From Patescibacteria group bacterium (GTDB lineage: Bacteria > Patescibacteriota > Patescibacteriia > UBA1558 > GWA2-36-10): a DNA stretch of 64,000 nucleotides. Of this stretch, positions 1,030 to 59,483 are shown piece after piece; position 1 is the stretch's first letter; each line of letters opens with the position of its first letter. Under the pieces are notes generated by a model, which was given only the letters and a program-made list of their open reading frames with translations, made no database searches and was not told the origin of the DNA. The position numbers and the translations under genes were made by a program. The stretch spans positions 83,108-147,107 of the forward strand of contig JBAYIR010000001.1 in the NCBI GenBank assembly GCA_041665505.1. The letters run 5' to 3'.

Positions 1030-1053
1030 ATGTGATCGTCTGGCTAGCTCCGT

Positions 1054-1158
1054 CTAGTGGCGAAGGCCTGCTCCCATTGTGATGGACAGGAGCAGAAAAC
1101 CAATGACCTTTGACGAAAGCCAGACTAAGGTGTATTTCCCAAATTTTTTGTGCGACAT
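1054..1158 (-). CDS. 34-aa hydrophobic peptide (MSHKKFGKYTLVWLSSKVIGFLLLSITMGAGLRH) in GC-elevated mini-cassette
   Basis: Minus strand reads AAGGAGG-aaacagc(7 nt)-ATG at 1172..1156. Upstream perfect TTGACA(1269..1264)-17-TATAAT(1246..1241). One predicted TM helix. Longer 71-aa track ORF 1054..1269 would run through its own promoter. Confidence 0.4.
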   Translation of the reverse strand: MSHKKFGKYTLVWLSSKVIGFLLLSITMGAGLRH

Positions 1159-1240
1159 GCTGTTTCCTCCTTGACTCGAGTAGCTGGCGGGTGGACAGTT
1201 GTTGGTGGCACAAATCAAATAATGAACGAAATAGTTATTT

Positions 1241-1269
1241 ATTATATTATGATTATTTTTAGCTGTCAA
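1241..1269 (-). promoter_or_regulatory. perfect consensus sigma70 promoter TTGACA-17-TATAAT (minus strand)
   Basis: Plus strand attata at 1241-1246 and tgtcaa at 1264-1269, exactly 17 nt apart; counted base by base. Confidence 0.6.
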
Positions 1270-1364
1270 TAATTTTTTATATTAGGTCTATATTTATAGT
1301 TATAGATTGATTTCCAAAAATTATTTAAAAATGTTATAATACCCCTACAGTTTAATATTAAATT

Positions 1365-1751
1365 TTGCGTATTTGTATGGTGAAAAATGACTATATAGTG
1401 AGTTTTTTGTTAATAATTGCCATAGTTTTTAGTATTATTTTTTATTTCAATGCTCGTCCACTAGTTAAGGACAAAAATGTCTTACAATATACCGCTGGTT
1501 GCAGTTCTGACAAAATAGATGCCTCAATTTATAGTTTGAGAGGGGATACTAGTTTGATCGGGGCTTTTATTAGTTTTGATAAAGTACCAATCGATGACAC
1601 TATCAGAGCAGAGTTGACCAAACTGGGAGTATTTTTAAGGGAGGACTCTTGGATATTTGATTATGTTTTGGCAGAAATTCCTACTGAGGCGCTGTGTAAT
1701 TTAGCTGATTATGATTTTGTGACGGGTGTTTTTATACCCCAAGAAAATTAA
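1365..1751 (+). CDS. hypothetical N-terminally membrane-anchored protein
   Basis: 128-aa ORF, hydrophobic N-terminus (FLLIIAIVFSIIFYF), low-GC native composition; no recognisable family. Confidence 0.35.
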   Translation: MRICMVKNDYIVSFLLIIAIVFSIIFYFNARPLVKDKNVLQYTAGCSSDKIDASIYSLRGDTSLIGAFISFDKVPIDDTIRAELTKLGVFLREDSWIFDYVLAEIPTEALCNLADYDFVTGVFIPQEN

Positions 1752-1775
1752 TATTGATTTTTCAGAAATAGAAAT

Positions 1776-2939
1776 ATGAAATTAAAAACTATTGATCAAA
1801 TAAAAAATTTAGCTGGTCAGCGAGTATTGTTGCGTTTGGATCTCAATGTGCCTTTGGATGCTAAAGGCAATGTGGAACGTCATGGAGATTGGCGACTAGA
1901 TAGGTCAATTCCAACTATTAAATATTTATTAAAACATCAGGCCAAAGTTATTATTATGGCTCATTTGGGCAGGCCACATGGTCAGCCTGACCCCAAATTA
2001 TCACTGCTACTAGTTTCTAAAGCTTTAGCCAAAAAACTCGGTCAAAATATTGAATTTTGGGCTGATGATTTTAGAGATTATCAGGAAGATAGCCACAATC
2101 TAGCCAATGCCACAGTGGCTATGTTAGAAAATGTGCGTTTTGAGCCTCGTGAGAAGCTCAATTGTAAACGTCTAGCCAAGGCTATGGCCAAATTGGGTGA
2201 TATTTATGTTGATGATGCTTTTGGCAATATCCACCGCTTGGATTCTTCTATGGAGGCTATTACACATTATCTGCCATCTTACGCTGGATTTTTAATTAGA
2301 GATGAAGTAGCTTATTTGTCACAGATATTAAATATCAAAAGAGGCTTGGTGATTATTTTTGGTGGAGCCAAAGCAGCCAGCAAGATGCAGCTCATCAAAA
2401 AATTTAAAAATAAAGCGCAAGGCGTCTTACTAGGTGGAGCTTTGGCCAATGTCATGCTCAAAGCTAGTGGTTATCCAGTGGGCAAATCTTTAGTGGATAA
2501 AGAATCTATGCCAGTGGCCAAAGAATTGTTAAATACGGTTGTAGAAATGCCTGTGGATGTGGTGGTAGCTAGCGGATTAAAGTCTAAGACTAGAAAAATT
2601 GTAGCTGTCGCTAAAGTGGCTAAAAATGAAATGATTTTGGATATTGGTCCAGCCACTGTGGCTAGTTATATTACTTTACTCAAAAAAGCCCAGTTAGTTA
2701 TTTGGAATGGGCCTTTTGGTTATTTTGAAAATCCAATTTATATGCAAGCTTCTAAACAAATCATGCAAGCTCTAGCCAAATCAAAGACTAAAGTTATTTT
2801 GGGAGGCGGTGAAACAGTCGAGTTGGCTCAGAAATTAAAATTGGATAAGAAATTTCATTTTGTATCTACTGGTGGTGGAGCCATGCTGACTTTTTTATCA
2901 GGAGACAAACTGCCAGCCTTGGAAAGGTTAAAAAAATAA
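1776..2939 (+). CDS. pgk: phosphoglycerate kinase
   Basis: 387 aa; N-terminal RLDLNVPLD motif and overall PGK architecture; followed by eno and gpmI. Confidence 0.9.
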   Translation: MKLKTIDQIKNLAGQRVLLRLDLNVPLDAKGNVERHGDWRLDRSIPTIKYLLKHQAKVIIMAHLGRPHGQPDPKLSLLLVSKALAKKLGQNIEFWADDFRDYQEDSHNLANATVAMLENVRFEPREKLNCKRLAKAMAKLGDIYVDDAFGNIHRLDSSMEAITHYLPSYAGFLIRDEVAYLSQILNIKRGLVIIFGGAKAASKMQLIKKFKNKAQGVLLGGALANVMLKASGYPVGKSLVDKESMPVAKELLNTVVEMPVDVVVASGLKSKTRKIVAVAKVAKNEMILDIGPATVASYITLLKKAQLVIWNGPFGYFENPIYMQASKQIMQALAKSKTKVILGGGETVELAQKLKLDKKFHFVSTGGGAMLTFLSGDKLPALERLKK

Positions 2940-2941
2940 TA

Positions 2942-4242: not shown

Positions 4243-5805
4243 ATGTCAGATATAAATAAAAAAAATATGCCTTTGGCGCTTTTGATACTGGATGGTTGGG
4301 GTATTTGGAATAAAAAAGAAGGTAATGCCATAGCTCTAGCTCATACACCGGTTATAAATAATCTTTATGAAAAATATCCTAATACCTTACTACAGGCTTC
4401 GGAAAAATATGTTGGCTTACCAGCTAATCAGCCGGGTAATTCCGAGGCTGGGCATATGAATATTGGGGCGGGTCGAGTGATTGAGCAAGACGCGGTTATA
4501 ATTTCCAAGAGTATCAACAATGGCACTTTTTTTAAAAATCCAGCTTTTTTGCAAGCAGCTCATCACGTCAGTGAATATAATTCAGATGTCCATTTGATGG
4601 GGCTTTTGTCTGATGGTTCTAGCCCTCATTCGCACGATGATCATCTTTTATCATTGATTAGTTTTTTTCTTAGTCGGACCAAGCAAAATATTTATCTTCA
4701 TCTTTTTACAGATGGACGTGATTCGCCACCCTTTGCCGCTTTAAAAATTTTGAGTCAATATACTTCAATATTCAATAGCAATAGAGTAAAAATTGCTACT
4801 GTCATGGGGCGTTTTTATGCTATGGACAGAAAAAAATCTTGGCCTAGAACAAAATTAGCTTATGAGGCTTTGGTTATGGGGAAAGGTCATCAAGTTGAAA
4901 ATCCTATTGAAGCGGTAAATCAAGCTTATAATCGAGGGGAAAGTGATGAATATATTTTACCAACAGTCATAGTTGATAAAGATAAAAGTCCGATTGCTAC
5001 TATTAATAGTAATGATGCTTTAGTATTTTTTAATTTAAGATCAGATCGAGCTCGTCAATTGACCAAAATTTTTGGGCAAGAAGATTTTAACAAAAAAAAT
5101 CCAGGTTCATTTAAGTTGATCAAAAAAATTGAAAATTTATTATTTGTGGCTTTGACTGATTTTGGTCCAGATTTAGAAAGGGTGCTAACTGCTTATCCAG
5201 GTATTGATATTTCCGATACTTTACCCATGGCGCTTAAAGATATTAGACAGTGTTATATTGCGGAAACAGAAAAATATGCTCACGTTACTTATTTTTTTAA
5301 TGGTGGTTATGATCATCCAGTTGGTGGTGAAGATTGGGTCAATATTCCATCTAAAGATGTAGCTTCTTATGCCCAAAAACCAGAGATGAGTACTTTTGAA
5401 ATTGCGGAAGAGGTGATAAAATATGTTCAAGAGGATAAATACGATTTTATTATGGTCAATTTTGCTAGTCCAGATATGGTTGGACATACGGGAGATTTGG
5501 CAGCCGGAATAAAAGCAGTAGAATTTGTAGATAAGGCTGTCGGACAAATTATTGATGCTATTTTAGCTAAGCATGGTACTATAATTATTACTGCTGACCA
5601 TGGTAATGTGGAAGAAATGATTAACTTGGAGACCAAAGAAATTGATACTGAGCATTCCAAAAATCCAGTACCACTTATTATTGTTAGCCATGATAATTTT
5701 AAATTAGTGACTAATGGCCAATTAGCAAATATTGCTCCAACTATTTTAGATATTTTAGGCCTGCCTCAACCTAAATTAATGACTGATAAATCTTTAATTG
5801 TTTAA
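4243..5805 (+). CDS. gpmI: 2,3-bisphosphoglycerate-independent phosphoglycerate mutase (copy 1)
   Basis: 520 aa; LLILDGWG, AETEKYAHVTYFFNGG, SPDMVGHTG, ITADHGN motifs of iPGM. Confidence 0.9.
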   Translation: MSDINKKNMPLALLILDGWGIWNKKEGNAIALAHTPVINNLYEKYPNTLLQASEKYVGLPANQPGNSEAGHMNIGAGRVIEQDAVIISKSINNGTFFKNPAFLQAAHHVSEYNSDVHLMGLLSDGSSPHSHDDHLLSLISFFLSRTKQNIYLHLFTDGRDSPPFAALKILSQYTSIFNSNRVKIATVMGRFYAMDRKKSWPRTKLAYEALVMGKGHQVENPIEAVNQAYNRGESDEYILPTVIVDKDKSPIATINSNDALVFFNLRSDRARQLTKIFGQEDFNKKNPGSFKLIKKIENLLFVALTDFGPDLERVLTAYPGIDISDTLPMALKDIRQCYIAETEKYAHVTYFFNGGYDHPVGGEDWVNIPSKDVASYAQKPEMSTFEIAEEVIKYVQEDKYDFIMVNFASPDMVGHTGDLAAGIKAVEFVDKAVGQIIDAILAKHGTIIITADHGNVEEMINLETKEIDTEHSKNPVPLIIVSHDNFKLVTNGQLANIAPTILDILGLPQPKLMTDKSLIV

Positions 5806-5811: not shown

Positions 5812-7389
5812 ATGAAAAGACCTCGACCAGTAGTGCTTGTTATATTAGATGGTTTTGGTATTGCGCCTCCTTCGAGAGCCAATGCTATTTCTTTGGCTAA
5901 AACCTCAAACTTTGATAAGTATTCTCAAAATTATCCAATTATGCCACTAGCAGCTAGTGGTGAAGCAGTCGGCCTTTCTTGGGGCGAAATGGGTAATTCT
6001 CAAGTTGGTCATCTTTCTTTGGGTTCTGGGCTAATTCCTTATCAAAATTTGCCTCGTATCACCAAAGCTATTACTGACGGAGAATTTTATAAAAATGAAG
6101 CTTTTCTTAAAGCTTGTGATAATGCTAAAAAAAGCGAAGCGGCTTTGCATATTATTGGTTTAGTCAGCTCCGGTGGAGTGCATAGCTACAATGAGCATTT
6201 GTATTCGCTGATAGAATTAGCTCACCAGCAAAAAGTGGAGAGAATTTTTATCCATGCTTTTTTAGATGGCAGGGATACCCCTTATAATAGTGGTATTAAT
6301 TTTATTAGTAAGTTGCAAGAAAAATTAAAAAATATAGGGACTGGTACTATTGCTAGTTTGAGTGGTCGTTTTTGGGCTATGGATAGAGATAATCGTTGGG
6401 ATAGGGTAGAGAAAGCTTGGCGAGCTATGGTAGACGGAGTATCTGATGAGAAATTTGAAGATCCTTTAGGAGCTATTCAAAAATCTTATGATAAAAAAGT
6501 ATATGATGAGGAATTTGTGCCAACAATAATATTGAATGATTTGGGTAAGCCCAAAGGTCTTATCAAAGATGGTGATAGCGTGATATTTTTTAACTTTAGA
6601 TCAGACAGGGCCAGGCAGCTTACTCAGGCTTTGACTTTACCAGGTTTTGAAAAATTCAAAAGACAGTATTTTAAAAATTTGGTGATGGTCACTATGACCG
6701 AATACGAAAAAGATTTGCCAGTGACAGTAGCCTTTCCACCTTTGGTCATTGAGATGCCTTTGGCTAGAGTTTTGTCTGAAGCAGGATTAAAACAACTTCA
6801 TATTGCGGAAACAGAAAAATATGCTCACGTTACTTACTTTTTTAACGGTGGTCAGGAAAAAATTTATGAAGGAGAGGATAGGGTACTAGTGCCTTCACCA
6901 CAAGTGGTCTCTTATGATCAAAAACCAGCTATGTCATCTAGAGAGCTTACTTCCAAGATAAATCAAGCAGTTAAAGAAGGGCAATATGATTTTATTGTAG
7001 CCAATTATGCCAGTCCAGATATGGTTGGACATACCGGCAATATCCAAGCGACTATAGAGGCTATAGAAATATTGGATCAACTAATTGGCGAATTAGTAGA
7101 TACAGTTTTGTCATACAATGGTTTGGTGCTTATTACCGCTGACCATGGTAATGCCGAAAATCTTTATGACTTGCAGAGTGGTGAGATAAACAAAGAGCAT
7201 TCCAATAATCCAGTACCATTTTTTATTATCGGTGATGATTTTGCTGGCAAGAGTGTCTTAGCTGGTAATGTCGGGACCGATCTCAGTCACGTTACACCAG
7301 TTGGTGTTTTAGCTGATGTGCCACCAACTATACTCAAAATTATGGGTATCAAAAAACCACCAGAAATGACCGGTAGTTCTTTGATTTAA
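5812..7389 (+). CDS. gpmI: 2,3-bisphosphoglycerate-independent phosphoglycerate mutase (divergent tandem paralog)
   Basis: 525 aa; VVLVILDGFG, identical AETEKYAHVTYFFNGG and SPDMVGHTG/ITADHGN motifs; otherwise diverged from copy 1. Confidence 0.9.
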   Translation: MKRPRPVVLVILDGFGIAPPSRANAISLAKTSNFDKYSQNYPIMPLAASGEAVGLSWGEMGNSQVGHLSLGSGLIPYQNLPRITKAITDGEFYKNEAFLKACDNAKKSEAALHIIGLVSSGGVHSYNEHLYSLIELAHQQKVERIFIHAFLDGRDTPYNSGINFISKLQEKLKNIGTGTIASLSGRFWAMDRDNRWDRVEKAWRAMVDGVSDEKFEDPLGAIQKSYDKKVYDEEFVPTIILNDLGKPKGLIKDGDSVIFFNFRSDRARQLTQALTLPGFEKFKRQYFKNLVMVTMTEYEKDLPVTVAFPPLVIEMPLARVLSEAGLKQLHIAETEKYAHVTYFFNGGQEKIYEGEDRVLVPSPQVVSYDQKPAMSSRELTSKINQAVKEGQYDFIVANYASPDMVGHTGNIQATIEAIEILDQLIGELVDTVLSYNGLVLITADHGNAENLYDLQSGEINKEHSNNPVPFFIIGDDFAGKSVLAGNVGTDLSHVTPVGVLADVPPTILKIMGIKKPPEMTGSSLI

Positions 7390-7391
7390 TT

Positions 7392-10728: not shown

Positions 10729-10768
10729 AGTAAAAAAATGAGGCGGGCACCTGTGGGGGTGCCCGCCT
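10729..10768 (-). terminator. GC-rich hairpin terminator of foreign ORF 10798..11991 (minus strand)
   Basis: aggcgggcacc-tgtgggg-gtgcccgcct palindrome preceded on plus strand by A7 (T-run on minus), ~30 nt downstream of the minus-strand stop. Confidence 0.6.
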
Positions 10769-10797
10769 TTGTGCGACCTGCGGTCGTACTGCGGATG

Positions 10798-11991
10798 TCA
10801 GTCTCCGTTGACCTCACCAATGATCCGGCGATGGTCACTGGTCTGAGCGACCAGTTTTCCGGCGACGATTGATATCGCCACCAGATCTCCCAGGAGAGTC
10901 ATGTCGAGCAGCTCCTGTGAGCCGTCCCGTCGCAGGAGTACCAGTCGGCTAGCCGACTGAACTCTGATCTCCCGGTACTGACCGGGCTCAGGGGCTATCT
11001 CAGCTACCGGCAGCGTCGGCTCTTGGTCGACGACCGGGGGCCAGATCTGCTGGTTGAGATCGACCGGGGGCCAGATCTGCTGGTCGACATCGACCGGGTC
11101 GATGTCCTGCCGAAGTCGGATTTCTCCGCCCTCGGAAGTGGTGGTTCGCGTACCAACTCGGACGTCGTTGCCACACCTCATCAGTGTGAGCGACGACGTG
11201 CCATCGGAAAGATAGCACCGCCAGGCCGGTTGCCAGTCGGGAATGTTCTTCTGCTGGCTTAGACCGCCAGCATAGCTCACCACCATGGGTCCACGTACGT
11301 CGACGGCCTCAATCCGGTCGATGCTCACTTGGCCGGGGAGCTTGGTTGATTCAGCGACCGTCATTGCGTTGCGCTCTACCTCGTACTGCCGAGCGAAGTG
11401 CTCAGCCGCTGTTTGGGCGGTTAGGATGCCGCCTGGCGCCTGATCTGGCCCCGAGTAGGGGTCAGCCATCTGTCGGAGGTAGCCTTCTTCGATCTCGTTT
11501 TGTCGACGATTGTCTTCCGCATCAGCATGCTGGGCCCTCTGGATGCCTTTACCTAGCAGGTAGGCCAGCGTAAACACCGCCATGATGACCGTGATGGCCA
11601 TCATCCAGCGTACCAAGGCGGGTGCCGTGGATCTTTCGGCCTGAGTCGTCGGCAGAGGAGATACAGTGGTGTCGGCCGGAATGGTCGGCACCATAGCATC
11701 GAGGCTAGCTCTTCGGAATTCGAAGAGGCGAACCAATGATGCTGGGATGATCAGCTTGTCACCAGGAATAATCATGTCCGGATCCGCCAGTTGCGGATTG
11801 GACTTGACCAACTCGGCCCACAAGCTCTTCTCTCCGAACGCCACTTGCCACTGACCGAGACGGTCAGCATCATCAACGATATACTCGCCGGATCCGTCGG
11901 CGAGCTTGTAAAGCCCACCTTCCGGAACCTGAGCACCGCAGATGCTGACGATGGTCAGTAGTAGCATGGCGCAGGACAGAATCCGTAGCAT
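10798..11991 (-). CDS. high-GC secreted/membrane protein: signal peptide, LysM-like motif, TM helix, C-terminal domain with tandem QQIWPPV repeat (foreign cassette A1)
   Basis: Start likely ATG 11991 (GGAGG at 12003..11999, 7-nt spacer), giving 398 aa, rather than the track start 12078. MLRILSCAMLLLTIVSICGAQ signal peptide; WAELVKSNPQLADPDMIIPGDKLIIP resembles LysM C-terminal half; hydrophobic LVRWMMAITVIMAVFTLAYLL. GC far above neighbours. Confidence 0.55.
   Translation of the reverse strand: MLRILSCAMLLLTIVSICGAQVPEGGLYKLADGSGEYIVDDADRLGQWQVAFGEKSLWAELVKSNPQLADPDMIIPGDKLIIPASLVRLFEFRRASLDAMVPTIPADTTVSPLPTTQAERSTAPALVRWMMAITVIMAVFTLAYLLGKGIQRAQHADAEDNRRQNEIEEGYLRQMADPYSGPDQAPGGILTAQTAAEHFARQYEVERNAMTVAESTKLPGQVSIDRIEAVDVRGPMVVSYAGGLSQQKNIPDWQPAWRCYLSDGTSSLTLMRCGNDVRVGTRTTTSEGGEIRLRQDIDPVDVDQQIWPPVDLNQQIWPPVVDQEPTLPVAEIAPEPGQYREIRVQSASRLVLLRRDGSQELLDMTLLGDLVAISIVAGKLVAQTSDHRRIIGEVNGD
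11039..11098. repeat. perfect-ish 30-bp tandem direct repeat inside cassette A1 (ggccagatctgctggt[t/c]ga[g/c]atcgaccggg x2)
   Basis: Seen directly; encodes VDVDQQIWPP / VDLNQQIWPP on minus strand. Confidence 0.7.
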
Positions 11992-12143
11992 AATGCTACC
12001 TCCAAAATGAATAGGGGAAACTTCAGTTACAGGGATCTGTAACCGGGAAGATTGAAATGTTTTTCGCTCTTCCCCCAAATACCCTATAGATACTTGGGGT
12101 AAAAGCGAATATTAACTTATAAATTGGCACTATACAATATATA

Positions 12144-12172
12144 ATTGTAACATATTTTTATAATTATGTCAA
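12144..12172 (-). promoter_or_regulatory. near-consensus sigma70 promoter TTGACA-17-TACAAT driving cassette A1 (minus)
   Basis: plus tgtcaa 12167-12172 and attgta 12144-12149, 17-nt spacer. Confidence 0.5.
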
Positions 12173-12203
12173 TACAATAAAATTGAGCTTAAGTTGTTTA
12201 TTA

Positions 12204-12232
12204 TTGACAATTATTATATTTTATGATATAAT
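12204..12232 (+). promoter_or_regulatory. perfect consensus sigma70 promoter TTGACA-17-TATAAT driving cassette A2
   Basis: ttgaca 12204-12209, tataat 12227-12232, spacer exactly 17; AGGAGG at ~12288 then ATG 12303. Confidence 0.6.
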
Positions 12233-12302
12233 ACTATATTGGTTCGAGAACTGAAGTCTGTAAACCTGGCCAAGAAATTGGCCTTACCAGGAGGAAAGAA
12301 TC

Positions 12303-13037
12303 ATGTTGTTTAACAAGAACACTTCCAAGAAGCTTGCTCAGGGTTTTCTGATTCTGATCGGGTCGTTGTTGATTCTGGCTGTCGTCATCGCCTTGGTCGG
12401 CGAGGCCAAGGCTGGTCCGATTCCGCGCTGGGATCACAACAGTGACATTGGTATCTGGAACGAGAGCACCCACCCGCCGCGGGCAGAGGTCAGACTCAAC
12501 CTGATCAACGCCCAATCCACTGGTGTGGAATCTCGTCTCCAAGGCGTCTGCTACGACCTCCTGGAGAAGAAGGACAAACCCTACTACCTGTACTTGGGCT
12601 TCGGCTTCCAGAGCGGACACCTGGACATCGAACCGGCTCTTGGCTGGTCCTTTCGCGACAATGAGTGGGTGGCGGCCTTTCGCACTTATCCCGAGTGGGA
12701 GAAGTGGCGGGGCTACTCCAACTGCGAGTATCAACTCGAGACCAAGAGCTGGTACTATTTGGCTCAAATCGAAACCCACTTCAACCACTGGGTAGAGTGT
12801 GGTGCCGAGATGGAGGGTTGGGGCGACATCGACGACCAGTTGACCAGCAATGGTGCTGGTATCAATGTTGTTTTCAACACCCATCCGCGGTGGGGCAATC
12901 CGGACTCAAAACTCCGGATAGAAGCTGGCCTTCAGCTCCGAGAGATGGACTCGAAGTACAAACCGCAGCTCATCGTTCGATTCATATTTAGCCCGGAGAT
13001 GGAGGAGCACACGCCAGATCCTAGGAGGTGGAGATGA
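12303..13037 (+). CDS. high-GC hypothetical protein, N-terminal TM/signal anchor, Trp/Gly/Tyr-rich beta-type domain (foreign cassette A2)
   Basis: 244 aa; LAQGFLILIGSLLILAVVIALVG hydrophobic N-terminus; strong SD; first ~10 codons AT-richer than remainder; no family recognised. Confidence 0.55.
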   Translation: MLFNKNTSKKLAQGFLILIGSLLILAVVIALVGEAKAGPIPRWDHNSDIGIWNESTHPPRAEVRLNLINAQSTGVESRLQGVCYDLLEKKDKPYYLYLGFGFQSGHLDIEPALGWSFRDNEWVAAFRTYPEWEKWRGYSNCEYQLETKSWYYLAQIETHFNHWVECGAEMEGWGDIDDQLTSNGAGINVVFNTHPRWGNPDSKLRIEAGLQLREMDSKYKPQLIVRFIFSPEMEEHTPDPRRWR

Positions 13038-13042
13038 CATTT

Positions 13043-13088
13043 GGCCCGCCGCGTGCAACAGCATGCGGCGGGCCTCAACTTTTGTCTT
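13043..13088 (+). terminator. GC-rich hairpin terminator of cassette A2
   Basis: ggcccgccgc-gtgcaacagcat-gcggcgggcc followed by tcaacttttgtctt. Confidence 0.55.
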
Positions 13089-13229
13089 AGTTATAACAGG
13101 ATTGACAATATTTTATTTTTACTATATAATAATCACATAAATTCCTAGAAGGGCTAGGAAGTAAATAATTAAATAGCCAAAGACAGTAGGTTTCTAGCTA
13201 ATATTAGCCAAGAATTAAATATCCTGCCG

Positions 13230-13295
13230 AGGTAGAAAATTTTAAGTTTTTCAACTGTCTGCGCTATTTACGCAGATTTTTTTAATAAAAAATAT
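13230..13295 (+). promoter_or_regulatory. candidate rplJ (L10) leader with attenuator-like hairpin
   Basis: tctgcg-ctattta-cgcaga hairpin plus T7 run ending ~13289 just before rplJ ATG; L10 leaders are autoregulatory in many bacteria (established knowledge), identity here is inference. Confidence 0.3.
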
Positions 13296-22964: not shown

Positions 22965-23075
22965 CTTGACTATAGTTTAAATATTTGTTAGAAATATATC
23001 TGTTTTATAGTCCCATACCGTTATTAGGCGGATGGGAGTTTAATAATTATGTTGTTAATATTTATAATATTTTAT

Positions 23076-23150
23076 GGCCCCATCGTCTAACGGTTAGGAC
23101 GTCAGGTTCTCAACCTGGCAATCAGGGTTCGATTCCCTGTGGGGTCACCA
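23076..23150 (+). tRNA. tRNA-Glu (anticodon CTC), CCA encoded
   Basis: Cloverleaf folded by hand: acceptor GGCCCCA/TGGGGTC, D-loop AACGGTTA, anticodon loop TTCTCAA, T-loop TTCGATT. Confidence 0.75.
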
Positions 23151-23151
23151 A

Positions 23152-23228
23152 GGGCATGTAGCTCAGTTGGTTAGAGCACTACATTCACATTGTAGGGGTC
23201 GAAGGTTCGAATCCCTCCATGCCCACCA
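23152..23228 (+). tRNA. tRNA-Val (anticodon CAC), CCA encoded
   Basis: Acceptor GGGCATG/CATGCCC, anticodon stem CTACA/TGTAG with loop TTCACAT, T-loop TTCGAAT. Confidence 0.75.
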
Positions 23229-23354
23229 TTCGACTCCGTTCTGCTCTGCAGAACTTCGCTCATGGTCTGCGACCACAAAAGTAAATTAAAATATAAGGTG
23301 TCGAATGTCCTGAGCGGAGTCCTGAGTTTATCGGAGGACGAAGTCGAAGGACAT
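23226..23354 (+). ncRNA. conserved structured tRNA 3'-trailer element, copy 1 (unknown family)
   Basis: Starts at the tRNA-Val CCA with TTCGACTCCG. Shares hairpin, ACTTCGCTCA/TGAGCGRAGT long-range pair, TGGTC/GACCA stem and CATTCGACTCC/GG(A/T)GTCGAATG closing helix with copies at 28003..27891(-) and 58824..58946(+). Followed by weak hairpin plus T7. Confidence 0.5.
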
Positions 23355-23383
23355 TAAAAATCAGTTTTATTTAAGGACTGTTT

Positions 23384-23430
23384 TTTTGTTGAAAAAAGAA
23401 GGCCGCCGCCACGTCAGACGTGGCGGCGGC
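23384..23430 (-). terminator. GC-rich palindromic terminator of cassette B1
   Basis: gccgccgccacg-tcaga-cgtggcggcggc 12-bp stem; A-run on plus (T-run on minus) at 23391-23397. Confidence 0.6.
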
Positions 23431-23445
23431 ATGAAGCGATATGAC

Positions 23446-24111
23446 CTAGCCGAGGTCGGCTTGGTCGAGGAGGCTCTTCTCGTATCTCTCGGCCACTTCG
23501 AGCTGATGCATCAGCCCATCGATGGCCATCTGGATGAGGTCTTCCCGGCAGGTCGGGACAGCTACAAAGCGTCTAGCCGCTTTGTCAGTTGGGAACATCA
23601 CAACCATCCACCAGCCTGCGGTAATTCCGCCGATTCCTTTGACCTTGCTACCGTAGGTGGTTGCCTTACCATCGACGATATCGTCGGGATTCTCCAAGCC
23701 GTAGCCATGGAAGCAGCGATAGTCGGGACCATGACGCTTGAATCGCAGGACCGCCACGACGGGTATTCTCACGTATTGATGGTACGTGGCAGCAGAGCAG
23801 CTGGTCGCCCTGACGATCTCGTTGTAGAACCCATCTTTGCGCTGAATTCTGATCAGCTGGTCAGAGAGGTCTCCCAGGACCGTCTTGATCTCCGAGCTGT
23901 CTGCAATCGGCCGTGCTATGACCGTGGTGGCCTGGGGGTTGACCTTGATGTCCAGCAGTGCAAAGCCGGCTTTTGCCAAGCTGATGGGGGACTCCGGATC
24001 GAGGGTGCCAGTAGCTACATCGTCTCTACCGATTCCCCAACGAAAACAATGATTGCCGTCGAGCCGTACCACACCAGTGGTGTAGATGGGGTCACAATTT
24101 TGTGCCTGCAT
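23446..24111 (-). CDS. high-GC hypothetical cytoplasmic protein (foreign cassette B1)
   Basis: Preferred start ATG 24111 with GGAGG(24123..24119)-7 nt-ATG, giving 221 aa; track start 24147 lacks SD. Natural-looking composition, unlike the plus-strand antisense ORF 23386..24153. No family recognised. Confidence 0.5.
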   Translation of the reverse strand: MQAQNCDPIYTTGVVRLDGNHCFRWGIGRDDVATGTLDPESPISLAKAGFALLDIKVNPQATTVIARPIADSSEIKTVLGDLSDQLIRIQRKDGFYNEIVRATSCSAATYHQYVRIPVVAVLRFKRHGPDYRCFHGYGLENPDDIVDGKATTYGSKVKGIGGITAGWWMVVMFPTDKAARRFVAVPTCREDLIQMAIDGLMHQLEVAERYEKSLLDQADLG

Positions 24112-24193
24112 TGGGAATCCTCCAGATTTAGTTGCATTTGTCTGCATTTATGATGCCTGCTGGCACCATTGTTCCTAGAGTTAGGAACAAAGT

Positions 24194-24222
24194 ATTATAC
24201 TATTATTTATTTTTTTTGTCAA
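24194..24222 (-). promoter_or_regulatory. perfect consensus sigma70 promoter TTGACA-17-TATAAT driving B1 (minus)
   Basis: plus attata 24194-24199, tgtcaa 24217-24222, 17-nt spacer counted. 5' UTR begins with 7-bp hairpin gttccta-actc-taggaac. Confidence 0.6.
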
Positions 24223-24235
24223 TGGTTGTTATATT

Positions 24236-24278
24236 TAAAGAAAATTAAGACCGCCGCGCATCCAGGGACGCGCGGCGG
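24236..24278 (-). terminator. GC-rich hairpin terminator of cassette B2
   Basis: ccgccgcgc-atccagggac-gcgcggcgg 9-bp stem, A/T-rich tract on minus side after hairpin. Confidence 0.55.
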
Positions 24279-24290
24279 CTACGGAGGATA

Positions 24291-24791
24291 CTACGGAAGT
24301 ATCTTCCAGACGGTAGGATTTCTTTTCCGGAAACTCTTGATGCTCTGCTCTCGGTGCATATTTTTGGCCAACACTACGGCCAAGATCAGAAGCATCAGAG
24401 CCATGAGGCTCTTGAACAGAGCCAAAATCCCTTGACCTAAAGGAGCGTGGATGGTGTGGACGGACATCGTCGCAACCAGTTTGTCTCCTTTGGTCTCGTA
24501 GACCATGAACTGGTACTGACCGAAGACGATCAGTGCTTCTTCGCCACTTTTGATGGTGGCGAGGTGCCGGCTGTTCTTGATGACCTTGAAGTAACACTCC
24601 TTGGAGTCGATGGTGACCAGCGCATGTTCGCTAATCTTGAAATCGACACTGTCGCCGTCCCGAAGGACAGCTCCAGTCACAGGAATCCGGTCATTCTCCG
24701 AACGAATATGGAGCTCGATAGCTCCTTCGCTCGCACGGACGACGGTGGTGGCACAGATCAGAATGGCGATGGTCAGAAGAAGAGTCTTCAT
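24291..24791 (-). CDS. high-GC secreted protein with N-terminal signal peptide and C-terminal TM anchor (foreign cassette B2)
   Basis: 166 aa; MKTLLLTIAILICATTVVRASEG signal peptide; C-terminal LMALMLLILAVVLA hydrophobic helix; AAAGGA SD 8 nt before ATG. Confidence 0.5.
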   Translation of the reverse strand: MKTLLLTIAILICATTVVRASEGAIELHIRSENDRIPVTGAVLRDGDSVDFKISEHALVTIDSKECYFKVIKNSRHLATIKSGEEALIVFGQYQFMVYETKGDKLVATMSVHTIHAPLGQGILALFKSLMALMLLILAVVLAKNMHREQSIKSFRKRNPTVWKILP

Positions 24792-24894
24792 GTCGCGAGT
24801 CCTTTCGCTTGCAGTTTCAGGTTCCTTCCCTCTTTATTTTAAAGGCTTTTGAGCCTTTTGTGACGTCAATGAGCTTGCTTTAAGCAATTATCTA

Positions 24895-24923
24895 ATTATA
24901 GCACTTTTTATCTTTTTTGTCAA
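24895..24923 (-). promoter_or_regulatory. perfect consensus sigma70 promoter TTGACA-17-TATAAT driving B2 (minus)
   Basis: plus attata 24895-24900, tgtcaa 24918-24923; ~95-nt leader to ATG 24791. Confidence 0.6.
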
Positions 24924-25021
24924 TGTATATTATTAAAATATATAAATATGTTTGAAAGCGCCATTATAGTTGACAATATTGATTATTTTTGTTAATATTT
25001 ACCCTGTTAAATAAAGAAAAT

Positions 25022-27885: not shown

Positions 27886-27890
27886 TTTAA

Positions 27891-33730: not shown

Positions 33731-33890
33731 AAATATATTTGATTCAGCCATTCGCGAAGGGCTGGATTGACAAAATGGGGTTTTTGTGTTAAAAATTATA
33801 GTTATTCGCGATTCATAGGCTTTGGGCTTATGGGTCACTGTTCCCCAGGCAAGTTGAAGCACCCCGAACCGAACATGGAGGTTTTAAGTC

Positions 33891-34613
33891 ATGACTCGCA
33901 AGCCCGTGATTCAAACAGCTCTCGAAAGCCTTGACCGTCAGATTGATGACAGAGTGGTCATCGACATTGACGGCGATGTGGATGAGGCCCAGCACATGCT
34001 TTACGCGTTTCGCACTTCGGTGGAAGAGGTGATCTTCGAAGGAGACAACACCGAAGAGTGTCGTCGGCAGTGCCTGGCCAACCTGACCAAGGTCGGCTAC
34101 CTGGAAGAGGCCATCAAGGAGTTGATGACTTTCTCCAAGCGGAGTCGGCGAGCGGTTCGTCGGTGGCTCTATGGGGAAGTTGTTCCTCAGCGAGTTGATT
34201 GGCTGCGGTGGCAGTACTGGCTTCGCGCCAAGGGGTACTACACGCGCGAGCTTGACCACATGCCCAACAGCTTCTTCCAGTTGCGCAAGCACATCCTCTG
34301 TGGCGATATCAGCTTCGCGGTTGCCGCCAAGGAGCTTGGTTGCACTCAGAAGGTTCTTCGGGGCATTCTGAACAATGAGGTGGACAGAGCTGTGATCATC
34401 AGTATCATCGGCAATGTCCACCATCTGGTGGCCAAGATCAACCGGCAGATCAGCCATCGGGAGATTGTCGGTTACATGGAGGTCTATTTGGATTCCGACG
34501 GCGAGTTTGCCGAAGTGAATCGGCGCTACAACCTGGACAACCAGAAGCGTCGTCGTAAGGTGGCTCACAAAGCTGCCAAGGCTCGCCGCAAGGCCAGGTC
34601 TTCCAAGAGCTAG
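33891..34613 (+). CDS. high-GC hypothetical protein with strongly basic C-terminal tail (foreign cassette C)
   Basis: 240 aa; GGAGG 9 nt upstream of ATG; C-terminus KRRRKVAHKAAKARRKARSSKS suggests nucleic-acid binding; TTGACA at 33767 with weak TAAAAA -10 at 17 nt; GC-rich hairpin 34638-34670 downstream. Opposite-strand ORF 33828..34568 judged antisense artefact. Confidence 0.5.
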   Translation: MTRKPVIQTALESLDRQIDDRVVIDIDGDVDEAQHMLYAFRTSVEEVIFEGDNTEECRRQCLANLTKVGYLEEAIKELMTFSKRSRRAVRRWLYGEVVPQRVDWLRWQYWLRAKGYYTRELDHMPNSFFQLRKHILCGDISFAVAAKELGCTQKVLRGILNNEVDRAVIISIIGNVHHLVAKINRQISHREIVGYMEVYLDSDGEFAEVNRRYNLDNQKRRRKVAHKAAKARRKARSSKS

Positions 34614-34760
34614 GCCACCACGGCCAGCGGCTAGATTTACCCCGGACTGCGTCCAAGCAGCCCGGGGTAAAAAATTGTAAAAATTAAGGCAAAATTAGCC
34701 AGAATTATTAAGTTATGATATTATATATCAACAAATACACCTTAAATCAGGCTTTAGATT

Positions 34761-42363: not shown

Positions 42364-42402
42364 AGCCCCTGACACTAAAATTTGTAGGGGCTTTTTTATT
42401 TT
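42364..42402 (+). terminator. rho-independent terminator
   Basis: agcccctgacactaaaatttgtaggggct hairpin followed by tttttatttt. Confidence 0.6.
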
Positions 42403-42427
42403 GACTAATTTGGCTGATTGGTATACT
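42401..42427 (+). promoter_or_regulatory. promoter TTGACT-15-TATACT upstream of cassette D
   Basis: ttgact 42401-42406, tatact 42422-42427; 15-nt spacer is short. Confidence 0.35.
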
Positions 42428-42465
42428 TTTAGTTTACACCCATCCCTGTGAAAGGAGGGAAAACC

Positions 42466-42717
42466 ATGTCTAGAGGCAGCATCGACAGAAGAGAAATCTT
42501 CATTGACATCACAGTGCCTGTCGAGCACTCTCAGGCATTTCTGGCCCGCCTCACAGCGGACAAGCAGTACAGTGTAGACGAGCTACACTGCCACCAAGCC
42601 CAGGATGGGTATCACATCAGGATTACCGCCCAGGTAATCGACCAGGTAAAATGCCTCCAATTTATCAAAGCTCTGGCCATAGAGCTTGGTATGGACGGCA
42701 TGACCAACAAGGCCTAG
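42466..42717 (+). CDS. high-GC small cytoplasmic protein, 83 aa (foreign cassette D)
   Basis: AGGAGG(42453-42458)-gaaaacc(7 nt)-ATG 42466; track ORF 42448 begins at a GTG inside the SD. MSRGSIDRREIFIDITVPVEH...; no family recognised. Confidence 0.5.
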   Translation: MSRGSIDRREIFIDITVPVEHSQAFLARLTADKQYSVDELHCHQAQDGYHIRITAQVIDQVKCLQFIKALAIELGMDGMTNKA

Positions 42718-42726
42718 TTTGATGAG

Positions 42727-42757
42727 AAGACCAGCACGGAGGCTGGTCTTTAATTTT
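42727..42757 (+). terminator. hairpin terminator of cassette D
   Basis: agaccagc-acgga-ggctggtct followed by ttaatttt. Confidence 0.6.
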
Positions 42758-50149: not shown

Positions 50150-51565
50150 ATGACAAGAATAAAAACAATAGAAACAGTAAATAAAGTAGGTGAAACAGTT
50201 TTGGTCAAAGGCTGGGTCAATGTCCGTAGAAATATGGGTAAAATTGCTTTCTTGGATTTACGTGACCGTTTTGGCATACTGCAAGTAGTGGCTGTACCAG
50301 CTGAGCTGGATGAAGCATCACAGGCTTTATTAAATACTATCCGTCCAGAGTTTGTCTTGGCTATAGAAGGTCTAGTCCAAGCTCGGGGGGCTAAACAAAT
50401 CAATAATGACTTAGCTACCGGCACAGTTGAACTTTTGGCCAAAAAAATACAGATATTATCTGAGGCTGAAACACCACCATTTGAAATAGATAATGAAGAA
50501 CGGCAAGCCAATGAAGAATTGCGTTTGAAATATAGATACCTTGATCTTCGCCATGAGCGCATGAAAAATAATATTGTGGCTCGTGATAAAGTGATTATGT
50601 TTTTTAGAGAGTGGTTGCATAAAAATGATTTTATAGAAGTGCAGACTCCAATTCTTTCCAAATCTACCCCTGAGGGAGCTAGAGATTATCTAGTGCCCTC
50701 ACGTCTTCATCCGGGACAGTTTTTTGCTCTGCCACAAGCTCCACAGCAATACAAACAGCTACTGATGGTAGCTGGCCTTGATCGTTATTTTCAAGTGGCT
50801 CCTTGTTTTAGAGACGAGGATGCTAGAGCTGATAGAAGTCCAGGAGAATTTTATCAATTGGATATGGAAATGAGCTTCATGACTCAAGAAGAGATTCTTG
50901 TTTTGGTAGAAACAATGTTTACAGAAATGGTAGAAACTCTATTCCCAGAGAAAAAAATTACGAAAAAGCCTTGGCCAAGAATTGATCATGATGAAGCTAT
51001 AGCCAAATACGGCAGTGATAAGCCTGATTTGAGAGAAAACAAAAATGATCCCAATGAATTAGCTTTTGCTTGGATAATTAATTTTCCATTATTTGCCAAA
51101 CAAACTGATGAAGATAGATTTATTGGTGCTGGCGACACTTGGGGACCAAGTCACAATATGTTTACTGCTCCCAAAGAAGAAGATGTACCATTACTAGATA
51201 GTGATCCAGGCAAAGTCAGAGCCTACCAACATGATTTGGCTTTAAATGGTTTTGAAGTAGGAGGAGGAGCTATTCGTATTCATGACATGAAAATTCAAGA
51301 AAAAGTTTGGAATTTAATTGGCTTTTCTGATGAGCAGAAAAAACAGTTTAAGCATTATTTTGAAGCTTTCAAATATGGTGTACCACCTCATGGCGGTATT
51401 GCTCCAGGCTTAGACAGACTAATGATGGTTTTGTTGGGAGAAAAAAATCTCAAGGAAGTGACTGCTTTTCCTTTGACTTCTGATGGTAGAGATCCAATGA
51501 TGGAATCTCCAGCTAATGTTAGCCAAGAACAGCTGGATGAATTACATCTGTCTATTAAGAAATAA
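50150..51565 (+). CDS. aspS: aspartyl-tRNA synthetase (short, archaeal/eukaryal-type length)
   Basis: 471 aa class IIb; FRDEDARADRSPGEFYQLDMEMSF motif 2, GGGAIRIHD motif 3. Confidence 0.8.
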   Translation: MTRIKTIETVNKVGETVLVKGWVNVRRNMGKIAFLDLRDRFGILQVVAVPAELDEASQALLNTIRPEFVLAIEGLVQARGAKQINNDLATGTVELLAKKIQILSEAETPPFEIDNEERQANEELRLKYRYLDLRHERMKNNIVARDKVIMFFREWLHKNDFIEVQTPILSKSTPEGARDYLVPSRLHPGQFFALPQAPQQYKQLLMVAGLDRYFQVAPCFRDEDARADRSPGEFYQLDMEMSFMTQEEILVLVETMFTEMVETLFPEKKITKKPWPRIDHDEAIAKYGSDKPDLRENKNDPNELAFAWIINFPLFAKQTDEDRFIGAGDTWGPSHNMFTAPKEEDVPLLDSDPGKVRAYQHDLALNGFEVGGGAIRIHDMKIQEKVWNLIGFSDEQKKQFKHYFEAFKYGVPPHGGIAPGLDRLMMVLLGEKNLKEVTAFPLTSDGRDPMMESPANVSQEQLDELHLSIKK

Positions 51566-51582: not shown

Positions 51583-51617
51583 AAACACTCTGGGCACAAG
51601 CTCAGGGTGTTTTTTTG
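51583..51617 (+). terminator. terminator after aspS
   Basis: acactctgggcacaagctcagggtgt hairpin followed by T7. Confidence 0.5.
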
Positions 51618-51649
51618 ACCGGCCTTTTTGTTTGTAGTATAATAAAATA

Positions 51650-51806
51650 AATATAAAGTTCTTCCAGCTATTCACGTCTTGATAAACATCATTTATCATG
51701 ATGGCGTGGAAACCGTCAGCCCAAATGCGCCTCAGGTGTCTCCTAGCGCTTGCGCGCTGACGGAATAGGGGGCCGGCGTTCGTCGGCCCCCGTCCTTTTT
51801 TACTGC
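51650..51806 (+). ncRNA. candidate GC-rich small RNA with own promoter (TTGACC-17-TATAAT at 51615-51643) and strong intrinsic terminator
   Basis: Long-range pairing ccgtcagc(51712-51719)/gctgacgg(51758-51765) encloses gcgc-rich hairpins; terminator gggggccg-gcgttcgt-cggccccc plus T6 at 51769-51805. Only a 20-aa SD-less ORF inside. Confidence 0.35.
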
Positions 51807-57543: not shown

Positions 57544-57546
57544 TAT

Positions 57547-58431: not shown

Positions 58432-58515
58432 TAATTTGAAAATATAATTGTCTTACAGTTGGTGAAGATTTTTCTGCTTACCGGCAGTTAGCTACCAGCT
58501 GTTAATTTTTTATAT

Positions 58516-58601
58516 GGGTCGGTACCGAAGCGGTCAAACGGGGCAGACTGTAAATCTGCTGGCATATGCCTTCGGGGGTTCGAATCCCTCCCGGCCCACC
58601 A
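58516..58601 (+). tRNA. tRNA-Tyr (anticodon GTA) with long variable arm, CCA encoded
   Basis: Anticodon stem GCAGA/TCTGC loop CTGTAAA; variable arm tggcatatgcc; T-loop TTCGAAT. Confidence 0.75.
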
Positions 58602-58751
58602 TCCTTTTTGTATTTTAGTAGTTAGAAATTAATTTGTCGTCTGCCGTCATAGCTCCCCGCACAGTCCTGCGGACTTGACGGGGCGAGTGTTGGTAAAATA
58701 AAGAGTAATAGGCACTTTCTTAGTTTAGTATATAAAATAAGTTTATTATCT

Positions 58752-58823
<72 letters not shown>

Positions 58824-58826
<3 letters not shown>

Positions 58827-58946
58827 TTCGACTCCGTCCCGCTAAAGCGGGACTTCGCTCATGGTCTTCATCCTCACCGCCATAGGCGGTTCGGATTGCG
58901 ACCACTTTTCTAGGAGTCGAATGCCCTGAGCGAAGTCGAGGGGCAT
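58824..58946 (+). ncRNA. conserved structured tRNA 3'-trailer element, copy 3 (divergent, with compensatory stem changes)
   Basis: TTCGACTCCG then hairpin gtcccgc-taaa-gcgggac (vs gttctgc-tc-gcagaac in copies 1/2), conserved ACTTCGCTCA...TGAGCGAAGT pair, TGGTC/GACCA stem carrying an inserted ccgcc-ata-ggcgg hairpin, perfect 11-bp closing helix CATTCGACTCC/GGAGTCGAATG. Confidence 0.5.
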
Positions 58947-58952
58947 AATAAA

Positions 58953-58978
58953 ACCACCCTTGGGGGTGTTTTTTTGTT
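58953..58978 (+). terminator. terminator ending the tRNA-Thr plus trailer transcript
   Basis: ccaccc-ttg-ggggtg followed by T7. Confidence 0.55.
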
Positions 58979-58990
58979 TGTTGTATTCAT

Positions 58991-59019
58991 TTGACAAAAT
59001 ATATAAAATATGTTATTAT
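58991..59019 (+). promoter_or_regulatory. near-consensus promoter TTGACA-17-TATTAT driving cassette E
   Basis: ttgaca 58991-58996, tattat 59014-59019, 17-nt spacer; ~100-nt GC-moderate leader with gggg-N13-cccc hairpin. Confidence 0.5.
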
Positions 59020-59123
59020 ATATAGTTCGTAATTCCTATTCGTATGAGTAGGTGGCTCTGAATGAGCAACGGGGTTTAGGCTTCTTTCCCCAACCAAGGA
59101 AGCGTGTTCTTTGAGGAGGCTGT

Positions 59124-59414
59124 ATGGCCAAGCAATTTGATATCACTGGTGGTCCCTCGCGGGAAGAGCTCTTTGACGCTCTGCGCCTGAGGCATGAGAA
59201 CAGGAAGCCTGTCTTCCACGTGCCGTACATCAGAGGAGGCTGTTTCGTAGTCAGTGTCGATGCCATCGGCATCGAAGACGGCAGTGGCGACAACTGGCTG
59301 TTGCAGCTACATGACCCTAATGGTCTTCTCGGGGCCAATCATTTGAAGGCCTACTTCAACACTGTCACGCGCAGGGGTTGGATGAAGCCCTTGGACTTGA
59401 AGCCCTTGGACTGA
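59124..59414 (+). CDS. high-GC small protein, 96 aa (foreign cassette E)
   Basis: GAGGAGG 4 nt before ATG; MAKQFDITGGPSREELFDALRLRHENRKPVFHVPYIRGGCFVVSVDAIGIEDGSGDNWLLQLHDPNGLL; no family recognised; antisense ORF 59036..59338 rejected. Confidence 0.5.
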   Translation: MAKQFDITGGPSREELFDALRLRHENRKPVFHVPYIRGGCFVVSVDAIGIEDGSGDNWLLQLHDPNGLLGANHLKAYFNTVTRRGWMKPLDLKPLD

Positions 59415-59428
59415 CGACAACATTGGTG

Positions 59429-59483
59429 CCGCGCGCAGAAGTCATCGGACTTCTGCGCGCGGGCCACAATTACTTTTTTTTTC
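59429..59483 (+). terminator. long GC-rich hairpin terminator of cassette E
   Basis: gccgcgcgcagaagtc-atcg-gacttctgcgcgcgggc then T9 about 8 nt later. Confidence 0.5.

Follow-up and report, generated by a model that had tools for sequence, protein, structure and literature searches.

GC-rich, Shine-Dalgarno-led single-gene cassettes between the housekeeping genes of a Komeilibacteria-like Patescibacterium: a probable resident class of accessory genes

Why should an AT-rich Patescibacterium hold, in the gaps between intact housekeeping genes, single genes that follow another base composition, another codon usage, and another set of translation signals? The question is raised by a stretch of 64,000 nt (hereafter the window), in which we recognised nine single-gene transcription units, the cassettes c1 to c9: eight with an open reading frame (ORF) and one specifying a non-coding RNA, with a tenth lying just outside. 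They occupy positions 1000..1269 (c1), 10729..12172 (c2), 23384..24222 (c4), and 24235..24923 (c5) on the minus strand, and 12204..13088 (c3, divergent from c2), 33767..34670 (c6), 42401..42757 (c7), 51615..51806 (c8, the non-coding unit), and 58991..59483 (c9) on the plus strand. A preliminary description of this DNA had counted at least seven cassettes; all its segments are real, but 10729-13088 and 23384-24930 hold two each, which brings the total to nine (51615-51806 being non-coding). Our answer, which we hold to be probable, is that the cassettes form a resident, lineage-specific class of accessory genes, organised as autonomous units and mostly fast-evolving, whose composition is held by a non-neutral force.

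The compositional contrast is sharp. A sliding GC profile (400 nt) gives a backbone of about 0.33, interrupted by sharp islands of 0.50-0.62 at the coordinates of the preliminary description. The cassette ORFs have a GC content of 0.47-0.59 and a GC content at third codon positions (GC3) of 0.60-0.71 (eight ORFs), compared with a native GC3 of 0.252 (standard deviation 0.036, maximum 0.353; 50 genes). Taken together, the two sets are bimodal and do not overlap, so the GC and codon profile above that of the neighbours, which had been proposed earlier, is now borne out by computation. The GC content at first and second codon positions (GC1, GC2) is also raised in the cassettes, the amino acid composition is shifted (arginine up, lysine and asparagine down), and the bases at third positions follow the order C3 > G3 > T3 > A3. 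Outside the coding parts, the cassette leaders, of about 30-140 nt, have a GC content of 0.39-0.52, versus 0.255 in native intergenic DNA.

When the whole window was scanned for TTGACA-16/18-TATAAT with at most one mismatch, 16 promoter-like sites were found, compared with 4.4 in shuffled sequences. Exact TTGACA-17-TATAAT promoters precede c1, c3, c4, and c5, those of c2, c8, and c9 have one mismatch, and those of c6 and c7 are weaker, in agreement with the four exact promoters and others one mismatch off that had been reported. The accompanying view that native promoters are merely ordinary has to be given up: rplJ has an exact consensus promoter (13102-13130), and mraZ, tRNA-Lys, scpA, and others have one with a single mismatch. 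As native genes share this AT-rich near-consensus style, the promoter is the one part of each cassette that is not foreign.

The signals of translation and termination differ. GGAGG Shine-Dalgarno (SD) sequences stand upstream of seven of the eight cassette ORFs and of none of 49 native genes. Their spacing is 7-9 nt in six cassettes, as had been claimed, and 4 nt in c9; c5 has AAGGA instead of GGAGG. Native starts have A/T-rich tracts, and 28 of the 49 lack even a 3-nt match to an SD. The cassettes stop with TAG (five) or TGA (three) and never with TAA, the stop codon of 42 of 50 native genes. Their terminators are hairpins with clamps of G and C only, while native hairpins are mixed; a GC-clamp hairpin followed by a T-run closes all units except c1, which has a native-type bidirectional hairpin, and c6, where an A-run follows the hairpin. 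By these signals, the cassettes are predicted to be autonomous transcription units of a composition unlike that of their neighbours. The genes that flank them encode PGK, enolase, YceG, rplJ, MurE/F, L21, RecR, DnaB, aminoacyl-tRNA synthetases, and similar functions, and the earlier picture of self-contained, compositionally alien expression units between intact housekeeping genes holds for both flanks and signals.

Is the arrangement authentic? An assembly chimera or deliberate engineering, as the preliminary description had considered, or else contamination, would account for the textbook appearance of the cassettes, the sole point in its favour. Through exact-protein look-ups the window was assigned to a public metagenome contig (k141_749216, 350,638 bp; ENA ERZ27249449), a metagenome-assembled genome at NCBI (WCV71_00520 onward), and an IMG contig of 306 kb. 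A Logan contig from a separate assembly (L002, SRR6484324) agrees with the window at 100% identity across 2,528 bp that take in c2, c3, and the AT-rich junctions on both sides, and another independent Logan contig (L097) spans the region beyond the window end. Diverged natural alleles with the same flanks are present in at least five further samples, and the same slots are occupied in related species. Identical sequence and junctions in independent assemblies of different runs exclude planting, engineering, and one-off chimerism, and the probability that we leave to such an origin is negligible. In all likelihood, the window comes from the genome of a Komeilibacteria-like Patescibacterium; that the cassettes are resident genes of this organism is probable.

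Natural genes may nevertheless be newcomers. A recent horizontal transfer from a GC-rich donor, for example the host of the epibiont, would bring in young, un-ameliorated DNA, and it would suit the extreme contrast in composition, codon usage, SD sequences, and stop codons. Patescibacteria often acquire genes by horizontal gene transfer (HGT), for the most part from other members of the group (PMC12455944), and the cassette content differs among close relatives. However, a scan of GTDB species genomes with a backbone protein brought up Komeilibacteria-like relatives with conserved gene order, and the comparison with relatives argues against such a transfer. In a Ca. Komeilibacteria genome (L085), orthologues of c2 (47% identical, GC3 0.62) and c3 (58% identical, GC3 0.57) both lie between yceG and rplJ and are still GC-rich, although its backbone proteins, with a GC3 of about 0.2, are 59-88% identical to those of the window. 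In three genomes with a backbone about 55-77% identical (L007, L009, and L010), the L21/tRNA-Glu slot is filled by the same architecture of promoter, leader, GGAGG, high-GC ORF, and GC hairpin; the slot ORFs of L007 and L009 show about 19-24% identity to c4 and a common C-terminal motif. A recent island should leave an empty site in relatives, and in L085, L089, L092-L095, L007, L009, and L010 we found the slots filled with GC-rich orthologues or analogues. The preliminary description had named orthologues from the candidate phyla radiation (CPR) in syntenic positions as grounds for dismissing the anomaly. Such orthologues were indeed found for c2, c3, c4, and c5, but they are GC-rich and SD-led, not ordinary; as they carry the same anomalous signals, they deepen the anomaly instead of removing it. 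At the level of sequence, these comparisons show that the slots and the gene families are inherited within the lineage.

The c2 family, the sole one given an exhaustive search (phmmer), has about 20 full-length homologues, the remaining matches covering the LysM-like segment only, and all homologues with a source name come from Patescibacteria (Komeili- or Kerfeldbacteria), which also speaks against a recent donor from outside. A metagenome scan with an alignment of seven sequences returned only two loci. At a high-GC locus of a relative (L086), small unknown ORFs, the c2 homologue, and a pilin-like gene have a GGAGG-type SD, while L20, L35, SmpB, and IleRS have none; the same split between SD-led genes and SD-less housekeeping genes is seen at a mid-GC locus (L091) and in L085. 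In the high-GC and the mid-GC Patescibacteria genome (L086 857-7608, L091 2000-8100), the c2 homologue is located within a row of small unknown ORFs that are SD-led and point in one direction. The two rows have an 83-86-aa membrane protein in common, and the pilin-like gene of the L086 row is of the type-IV kind. Such rows may represent, in clustered form, the gene class whose members lie scattered in the window genome.

The direction of recent substitutions bears on the same alternative. Third-position differences between the window and strain L089 were polarised by parsimony with L092 (27% diverged) as outgroup, W standing for A or T and S for G or C. In the backbone the ratio of W→S to S→W changes is 56:36 at a GC3 of 0.23, so that GC-to-AT changes are about 2.2 times as frequent per site as AT-to-GC changes. 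In c5 the ratio is 12:12 at a GC3 of 0.68, and AT-to-GC changes are about 2.1 times as frequent per site as the reverse; under backbone rates, 18% W→S would be expected (p = 3.7e-4). The c4 ratio of 16:27 likewise departs from what backbone rates predict (p = 1.8e-3). Young DNA on its way to the backbone composition should lose GC at about 4.5:1, but c5 is balanced, at a rate of synonymous substitution (dS) like that of its flanks. The pattern shows c5 to be, as far as these sequence counts reach, at an equilibrium of its own, the reverse of that of the neighbouring backbone, and its high GC content not to be the fading trace of a transfer. Taken with the orthologues that are GC-rich in species where saturation of synonymous sites is to be expected (as judged from the 59-88% protein identity), this equilibrium indicates that the composition is actively maintained. 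Recent transfer is consequently an explanation that we regard as quite unlikely.

What, then, changes in the cassettes? Six strains cover the segment L21-c5-c4. Between the window and L089, DnaB, RecR, and L21 are 97-99% identical, compared with 85% for c5 and 58% for c4; dS is 0.15-0.34 for the backbone, 0.36 for c5, and 0.94 for c4, and the ratio of non-synonymous to synonymous rates (dN/dS) is 0.02-0.06, 0.27, and 0.32, respectively. Among strains L092-L095, L21 and c5 show 100% identity, and c4 falls into two allele groups that are about 70% identical. The break between the alleles begins in the loop of the c5 terminator; promoter, leader, and the first ~60 nt are 85-95% identical, the ORF body is 65-70% identical, and the last 20 nt with the terminator are about 97% identical. 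Identical flanks around a divergence confined to the c4 ORF body show that alleles are replaced by recombination. In strain L004, whose flanks are 90-94% identical to those of the window, the cassette found in the c6 slot encodes 190 aa and has no more than 24% identity to c6, and both alleles show segments that resemble a helix-turn-helix (HTH) by eye. The c6 slot of L004 (1640-2122, corresponding to window 33723-34661) also has an AT-rich spacer and a tRNA-Asn(GTT), both of which the window strain lacks at this position and throughout the window.

A body that is replaced between a conserved promoter, leader, first ~20 codons, and terminator recalls the expression sites of antigenic variation (Borrelia vlsE, Neisseria pilE type), which undergo gene conversion from silent copies. 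The vls locus of Borrelia is, moreover, a GC-rich locus in an AT-rich genome. On the other side, silent or partial copies of c2, c3, c4, c5, and c6 are absent from the 74 kb made up of the window and L096, the sequence that carries the tenth cassette. Additionally, c4 has no signal peptide, its alleles vary between strains with no variation seen within a genome, and c7 is conserved. An antigenic-variation site of this type therefore seems highly improbable to us.

The cassettes could also be cargo of mobile elements, that is, phage morons, integron-like cassettes, or remnants of integrative elements at tRNA-proximal sites. Their make-up is moron-like (own promoter, own terminator, atypical GC, a place between two host genes), several slots adjoin tRNA genes, the 3'-end GC palindromes of c4 and c5 are near-identical in L092, and the c2 homologues of L086 and L091 stand in the rows of small SD-led ORFs mentioned above. 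However, no integrase, transposase, reverse transcriptase (RT), or phage structural gene was found in the 74 kb, and there are no flanking direct repeats. No defence, phage, or mobile-element families were detected, PHROG gave no significant matches, and IMG/VR scans for c2, c3, c4, and the 737-aa product of the tenth cassette gave no relatives. The units are dispersed singly, not arrayed, and their positions are conserved across species. This makes mobile cargo an unlikely origin. All in all, recent HGT from outside the CPR, mobile cargo, and vls-like conversion are ranked as less likely than a resident gene class.

How would such a resident gene class work? Each cassette would be a monocistronic unit with a fixed place between two housekeeping genes, often near tRNA genes. 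Transcription would start from a native-type, near-consensus sigma-70 promoter, and everything downstream of it departs from the remaining genome: the leader is long (and, in c2, where this could be assessed, structured), and it is followed by the GGAGG SD, GC-rich codons, shifted amino acids, TAG or TGA as stop, and a GC-clamp terminator. In c4 and c6, whole ORF bodies are swapped between strains by homologous recombination anchored in the conserved promoter/leader and terminator. We infer that the products serve in contacts with hosts, phages, or competitors and that a non-neutral force keeps the composition. Three forces are candidates: selection for a mode of expression that depends on SD sequences and GC-rich codons, GC-biased repair where diverged alleles recombine often, and steady renewal by import from a GC-rich gene pool common to Patescibacteria. 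For bacteria, a hypothesis of GC-biased gene conversion (gBGC) has been put forward (PMC4450053). We tentatively entertain the idea of a second, SD-dependent expression channel reserved for fast-evolving interaction genes, at odds clearly below even. As the backbone lacks SD sequences and the anti-SD is reportedly missing in about half of Parcubacteria, while the cassettes would combine, under selection, a sigma-70 promoter with a strong SD, GC-rich codons, and GC-rich hairpins, they could even be addressed to another translation apparatus than that which reads the other genes, as effectors meant for expression in a GC-richer host cell after transfer of DNA or mRNA from the epibiont; this idea seems very unlikely to us. 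The suggestion that the cassettes make up one distributed, co-regulated foreign system found no backing, as no functional link joins the products and all that they have in common is a generic promoter type that is native too.

Three further causes were considered and rejected. Adenine mutagenesis as in diversity-generating retroelements does not fit, as there is no RT in the window, the sense strands are not poor in A relative to T, and all base types are changed over the whole ORF body. Transcription-coupled repair of highly expressed genes is contradicted by rplJ/rplL, whose GC3 is about 0.2 in spite of their exact consensus promoter. Pure translational selection would leave the raised GC content of leaders and terminators, as well as the shifts in GC1, GC2, and amino acid usage, without explanation.

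Several observations weigh against the resident gene class and its maintained composition. In L005 and L008, the closest GTDB species, the c4/c5 slot has only a small SD-led ORF (about 80 aa), whose GC content is mildly raised; this contrast speaks for frequent gain, loss, and replacement, and makes repeated import possible. The c4 substitutions, at a W→S:S→W ratio of 16:27-30, lean toward GC loss, and all polarised counts are small, are based on parsimony with a diverged outgroup, and may be contaminated by recombination. Hypervariability is not universal either, as c7 is 95-100% conserved among strains; a gene so conserved and yet GC-rich also weakens any account by recombination or gBGC alone. 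Searches of the cassette proteins against Pfam, PHROG, PADLOC, and PDB sequences gave nothing significant beyond a weak LysM match. Finally, the anti-SD motif is reported to be missing from about half of the 16S genes of Parcubacteria (PMC9297842), which touches the use of SD sequences by the cassettes. The scarcity of native SD sequences and the A/T-rich starts are consistent with the anti-SD loss reported for many Parcubacteria; a 16S gene in which the anti-SD could be read was looked for in the sequences of the relatives that were used here, and none was present.

The individual units agree in plan and differ in product. The short c1 has its promoter at 1269-1241, a 5' untranslated region of ~75 nt, AAGGAGG, and an ORF (1158-1054) for 34 aa with one transmembrane (TM) helix, a TAG stop, and a GC3 of 0.60; the bidirectional hairpin that it shares is located at 1003-1030. 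Transcription of c2 would start from 12172-12144 and pass a leader of ~145 nt (12140-11992) with GGAGG before the ORF (11991-10798), which is followed by a GC hairpin (10735-10765). Its product of 397 aa (GC3 0.67) has a signal peptide, a LysM-like segment at residues ~33-86, a TM segment at ~128-150, and a beta-rich C-terminal domain. The Pfam LysM match (E = 0.072, 13.5 bits) is below the cut-off of 20.9; residues 33-86 match many multi-LysM-like repeat proteins in the exhaustive search, and one homologue is named a LysM protein by NCBI. The AlphaFold2 (AF2) model of c2 has a pLDDT of 79, with the beta-rich domain confidently modelled, and Foldseek against the PDB found no fold match for it. 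Two species with c2 proteins only 47% identical still have a c2 leader that is about 80% conserved, and in its predicted fold, based on two sequences only, CUUCC/CCUCC is paired with the SD. The c2 gene contains, at 11015-11100 (-), a ~39-nt tandem duplication that encodes a repeated DQQIWPPVD-like motif.

The divergent c3 has its promoter at 12204-12232, a leader of ~65 nt, AGGAGG, an ORF (12303-13037), and a GC hairpin (13045-13075); its product of 244 aa carries an N-terminal signal peptide or anchor (GC3 0.71). Downstream of it, an L10 leader (RF00557, 59.7 bits) lies at 13159-13291 (+), ahead of rplJ-rplL. The usual rplK-rplA (L11-L1) pair is not found upstream of rplJ here; yceG, c2, and c3 occupy that place. 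Loss of uL1 co-occurs with anti-SD loss in Parcubacteria (PMC9297842).

The neighbours c4 and c5 have their promoters at 24222-24194 and 24923-24895, leaders of ~80 and ~100 nt, GGAGG and AAGGA, ORFs at 24111-23446 and 24291 to 24791 (read as 24791-24291), and GC hairpins at 23392-23428 and 24249-24280, respectively. The c4 product (221 aa, GC3 0.68), whose ORF body is hypervariable among strains, is cytoplasmic, and its AF2 model from four sequences (pLDDT 40) was not used; that of c5 (166 aa, GC3 0.67) has a signal peptide and a C-terminal TM anchor. In c6, TTGACA at 33767 is combined with a weak -10 element, a leader of ~90 nt, GGAGG, an ORF (33891-34613), and a hairpin without a T-run (34640-34667); the cytoplasmic product of 240 aa (GC3 0.71) has two of the HTH-like segments and a basic tail. 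The promoter of c7 has TTGACT at 42401 with sub-optimal spacing, and AAGGAGG, an ORF (42466-42717) for a cytoplasmic protein of 83 aa (GC3 0.65, conserved among strains), and a hairpin (42728-42752) follow. With a promoter at 58991-59019, a leader of ~100 nt, AGGAGG, an ORF (59124-59414), and a GC hairpin (59428-59470) before its T-run, c9 encodes a cytoplasmic protein of 96 aa (GC3 0.69). The tenth cassette (L096 17150-19600) is located ~4-6.7 kb past the window end on the same contig, between an SdpI-like gene and dus; it has an exact consensus promoter, a 125-nt leader, AAGGAGG, and a GC hairpin, and its ORF, with a GC content of 0.5-0.6, encodes a polytopic membrane protein of 737 aa. By their sequences, the products of c1, c2, c3, c5, and this tenth unit belong to the envelope or are secreted, those of c4, c6, c7, and c9 being cytoplasmic, and the earlier statement that many products are secreted or membrane proteins is sustained.

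The non-coding c8 has its promoter at 51615-51643 and would give an RNA of ~150 nt that forms three hairpins and ends in a GC-clamp terminator; it has no SD and no credible ORF. The RNA folds strongly (z = -5.1 over 150 nt) and may be an ordinary structured small RNA. In Rfam searches of c8, of the c2 leader, and of a tRNA-linked element, no match reached or approached the gathering score.

The latter is a GC-rich element of ~115-125 nt that begins directly at the encoded CCA end of tRNA-Val(CAC), tRNA-Thr(GGU), and tRNA-Lys(UUU), located at 23226-23355 (+), 58824-58945 (+), and 28003-27893 (-), with the consensus CCATTCGACTCCGT-hairpin-ACTTCGCTCATGGTCT..GCGACCAC..GGTGTCGAATGYCCTGAG. Its 5' CATTCGAC may pair with its 3' GTCGAATG, and a possible copy is found next to tRNA-Val in L009. 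The GC-rich stretches 23060-23360, 27880-28240, and 58500-58950 are tRNAs with this element, not cassettes. Partial duplicates of tRNA 5' ends (GCGCCTATAGCTC.., CTGCCGTCATAGCTCC..) lie upstream of tRNA-Lys (28250-28080 (-)) and tRNA-Thr(GGU) (58636-58700 (+)), with a GC hairpin behind each of them; fragments of pseudo-tRNAs and leader structures are both conceivable. Among the other genes of the window are two tandem iPGM paralogues (4243-5805, 5812-7389) and two class-II aminoacyl-tRNA synthetase (tRNA-synt_2) paralogues (47819-49108 and 50150-51565), the latter separated by a small ORF, a tRNA-Thr, and a peptidase S51 gene.

If the pattern is confirmed genome-wide, one small genome would hold two stable and long-lived sets of conventions for base composition, codons, ribosome-binding signal, and stop, and the standard practice of dating transfers as recent by their atypical GC would be challenged. 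The cassettes would also offer a clean natural test of selection against GC-biased conversion in bacteria, and, for an uncultured CPR lineage of otherwise obscure biology, a small and easily recognised set of candidate genes for interaction with hosts, phages, or competitors. Concomitantly, they raise the question of SD-dependent versus SD-independent initiation for Parcubacteria-type ribosomes.

Our literature searches returned no description of such a pattern, and the known systems resemble it in part. The phage moron of Hendrix and Juhala consists of one ORF that brings along a promoter and an intrinsic terminator, placed between two resident genes and of distinct composition. The cassettes share the single ORF, the own promoter and terminator, the clean placement between genes, and the differing composition; however, they lie in a housekeeping chromosome and not within a prophage or among phage genes, their positions are conserved across species, they are GC-richer, and no viral contig is linked to them. 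Integron cassettes likewise combine one ORF with a GC-rich imperfect palindrome, and variable content with a fixed place. Here, in contrast, the units have their own promoters, integrase, attI, and tandem array are missing, and the 3' palindromes are heterogeneous without an attC-like conserved core. GC-rich genes for secreted proteins that are ascribed to recombination or gBGC, such as Borrelia vls and the subtelomeric genes of Cryptosporidium (PMC10438818), show local GC excess, recombination, and rapid evolution in an AT-rich genome, but the cassettes have neither donor arrays nor a chromosome-end setting, their boundaries are sharp and fall at those of the transcription unit, SD and stop codons contrast with the backbone, and the conserved c7 is GC-rich as well. 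With the genes of the Lawrence-Ochman amelioration model the cassettes have in common atypical GC, codon usage, and orphan status; they differ in the syntenic orthologues kept in diverged species and in substitutions at equilibrium. Finally, like hypervariable islets of the O-antigen, pilin, or hsdS type, they combine conserved flanks with diverged alleles, many envelope products, and raised dN/dS, but they do so as single genes in many dispersed slots, GC-rich instead of AT-rich, with translation signals that set them apart from the core.

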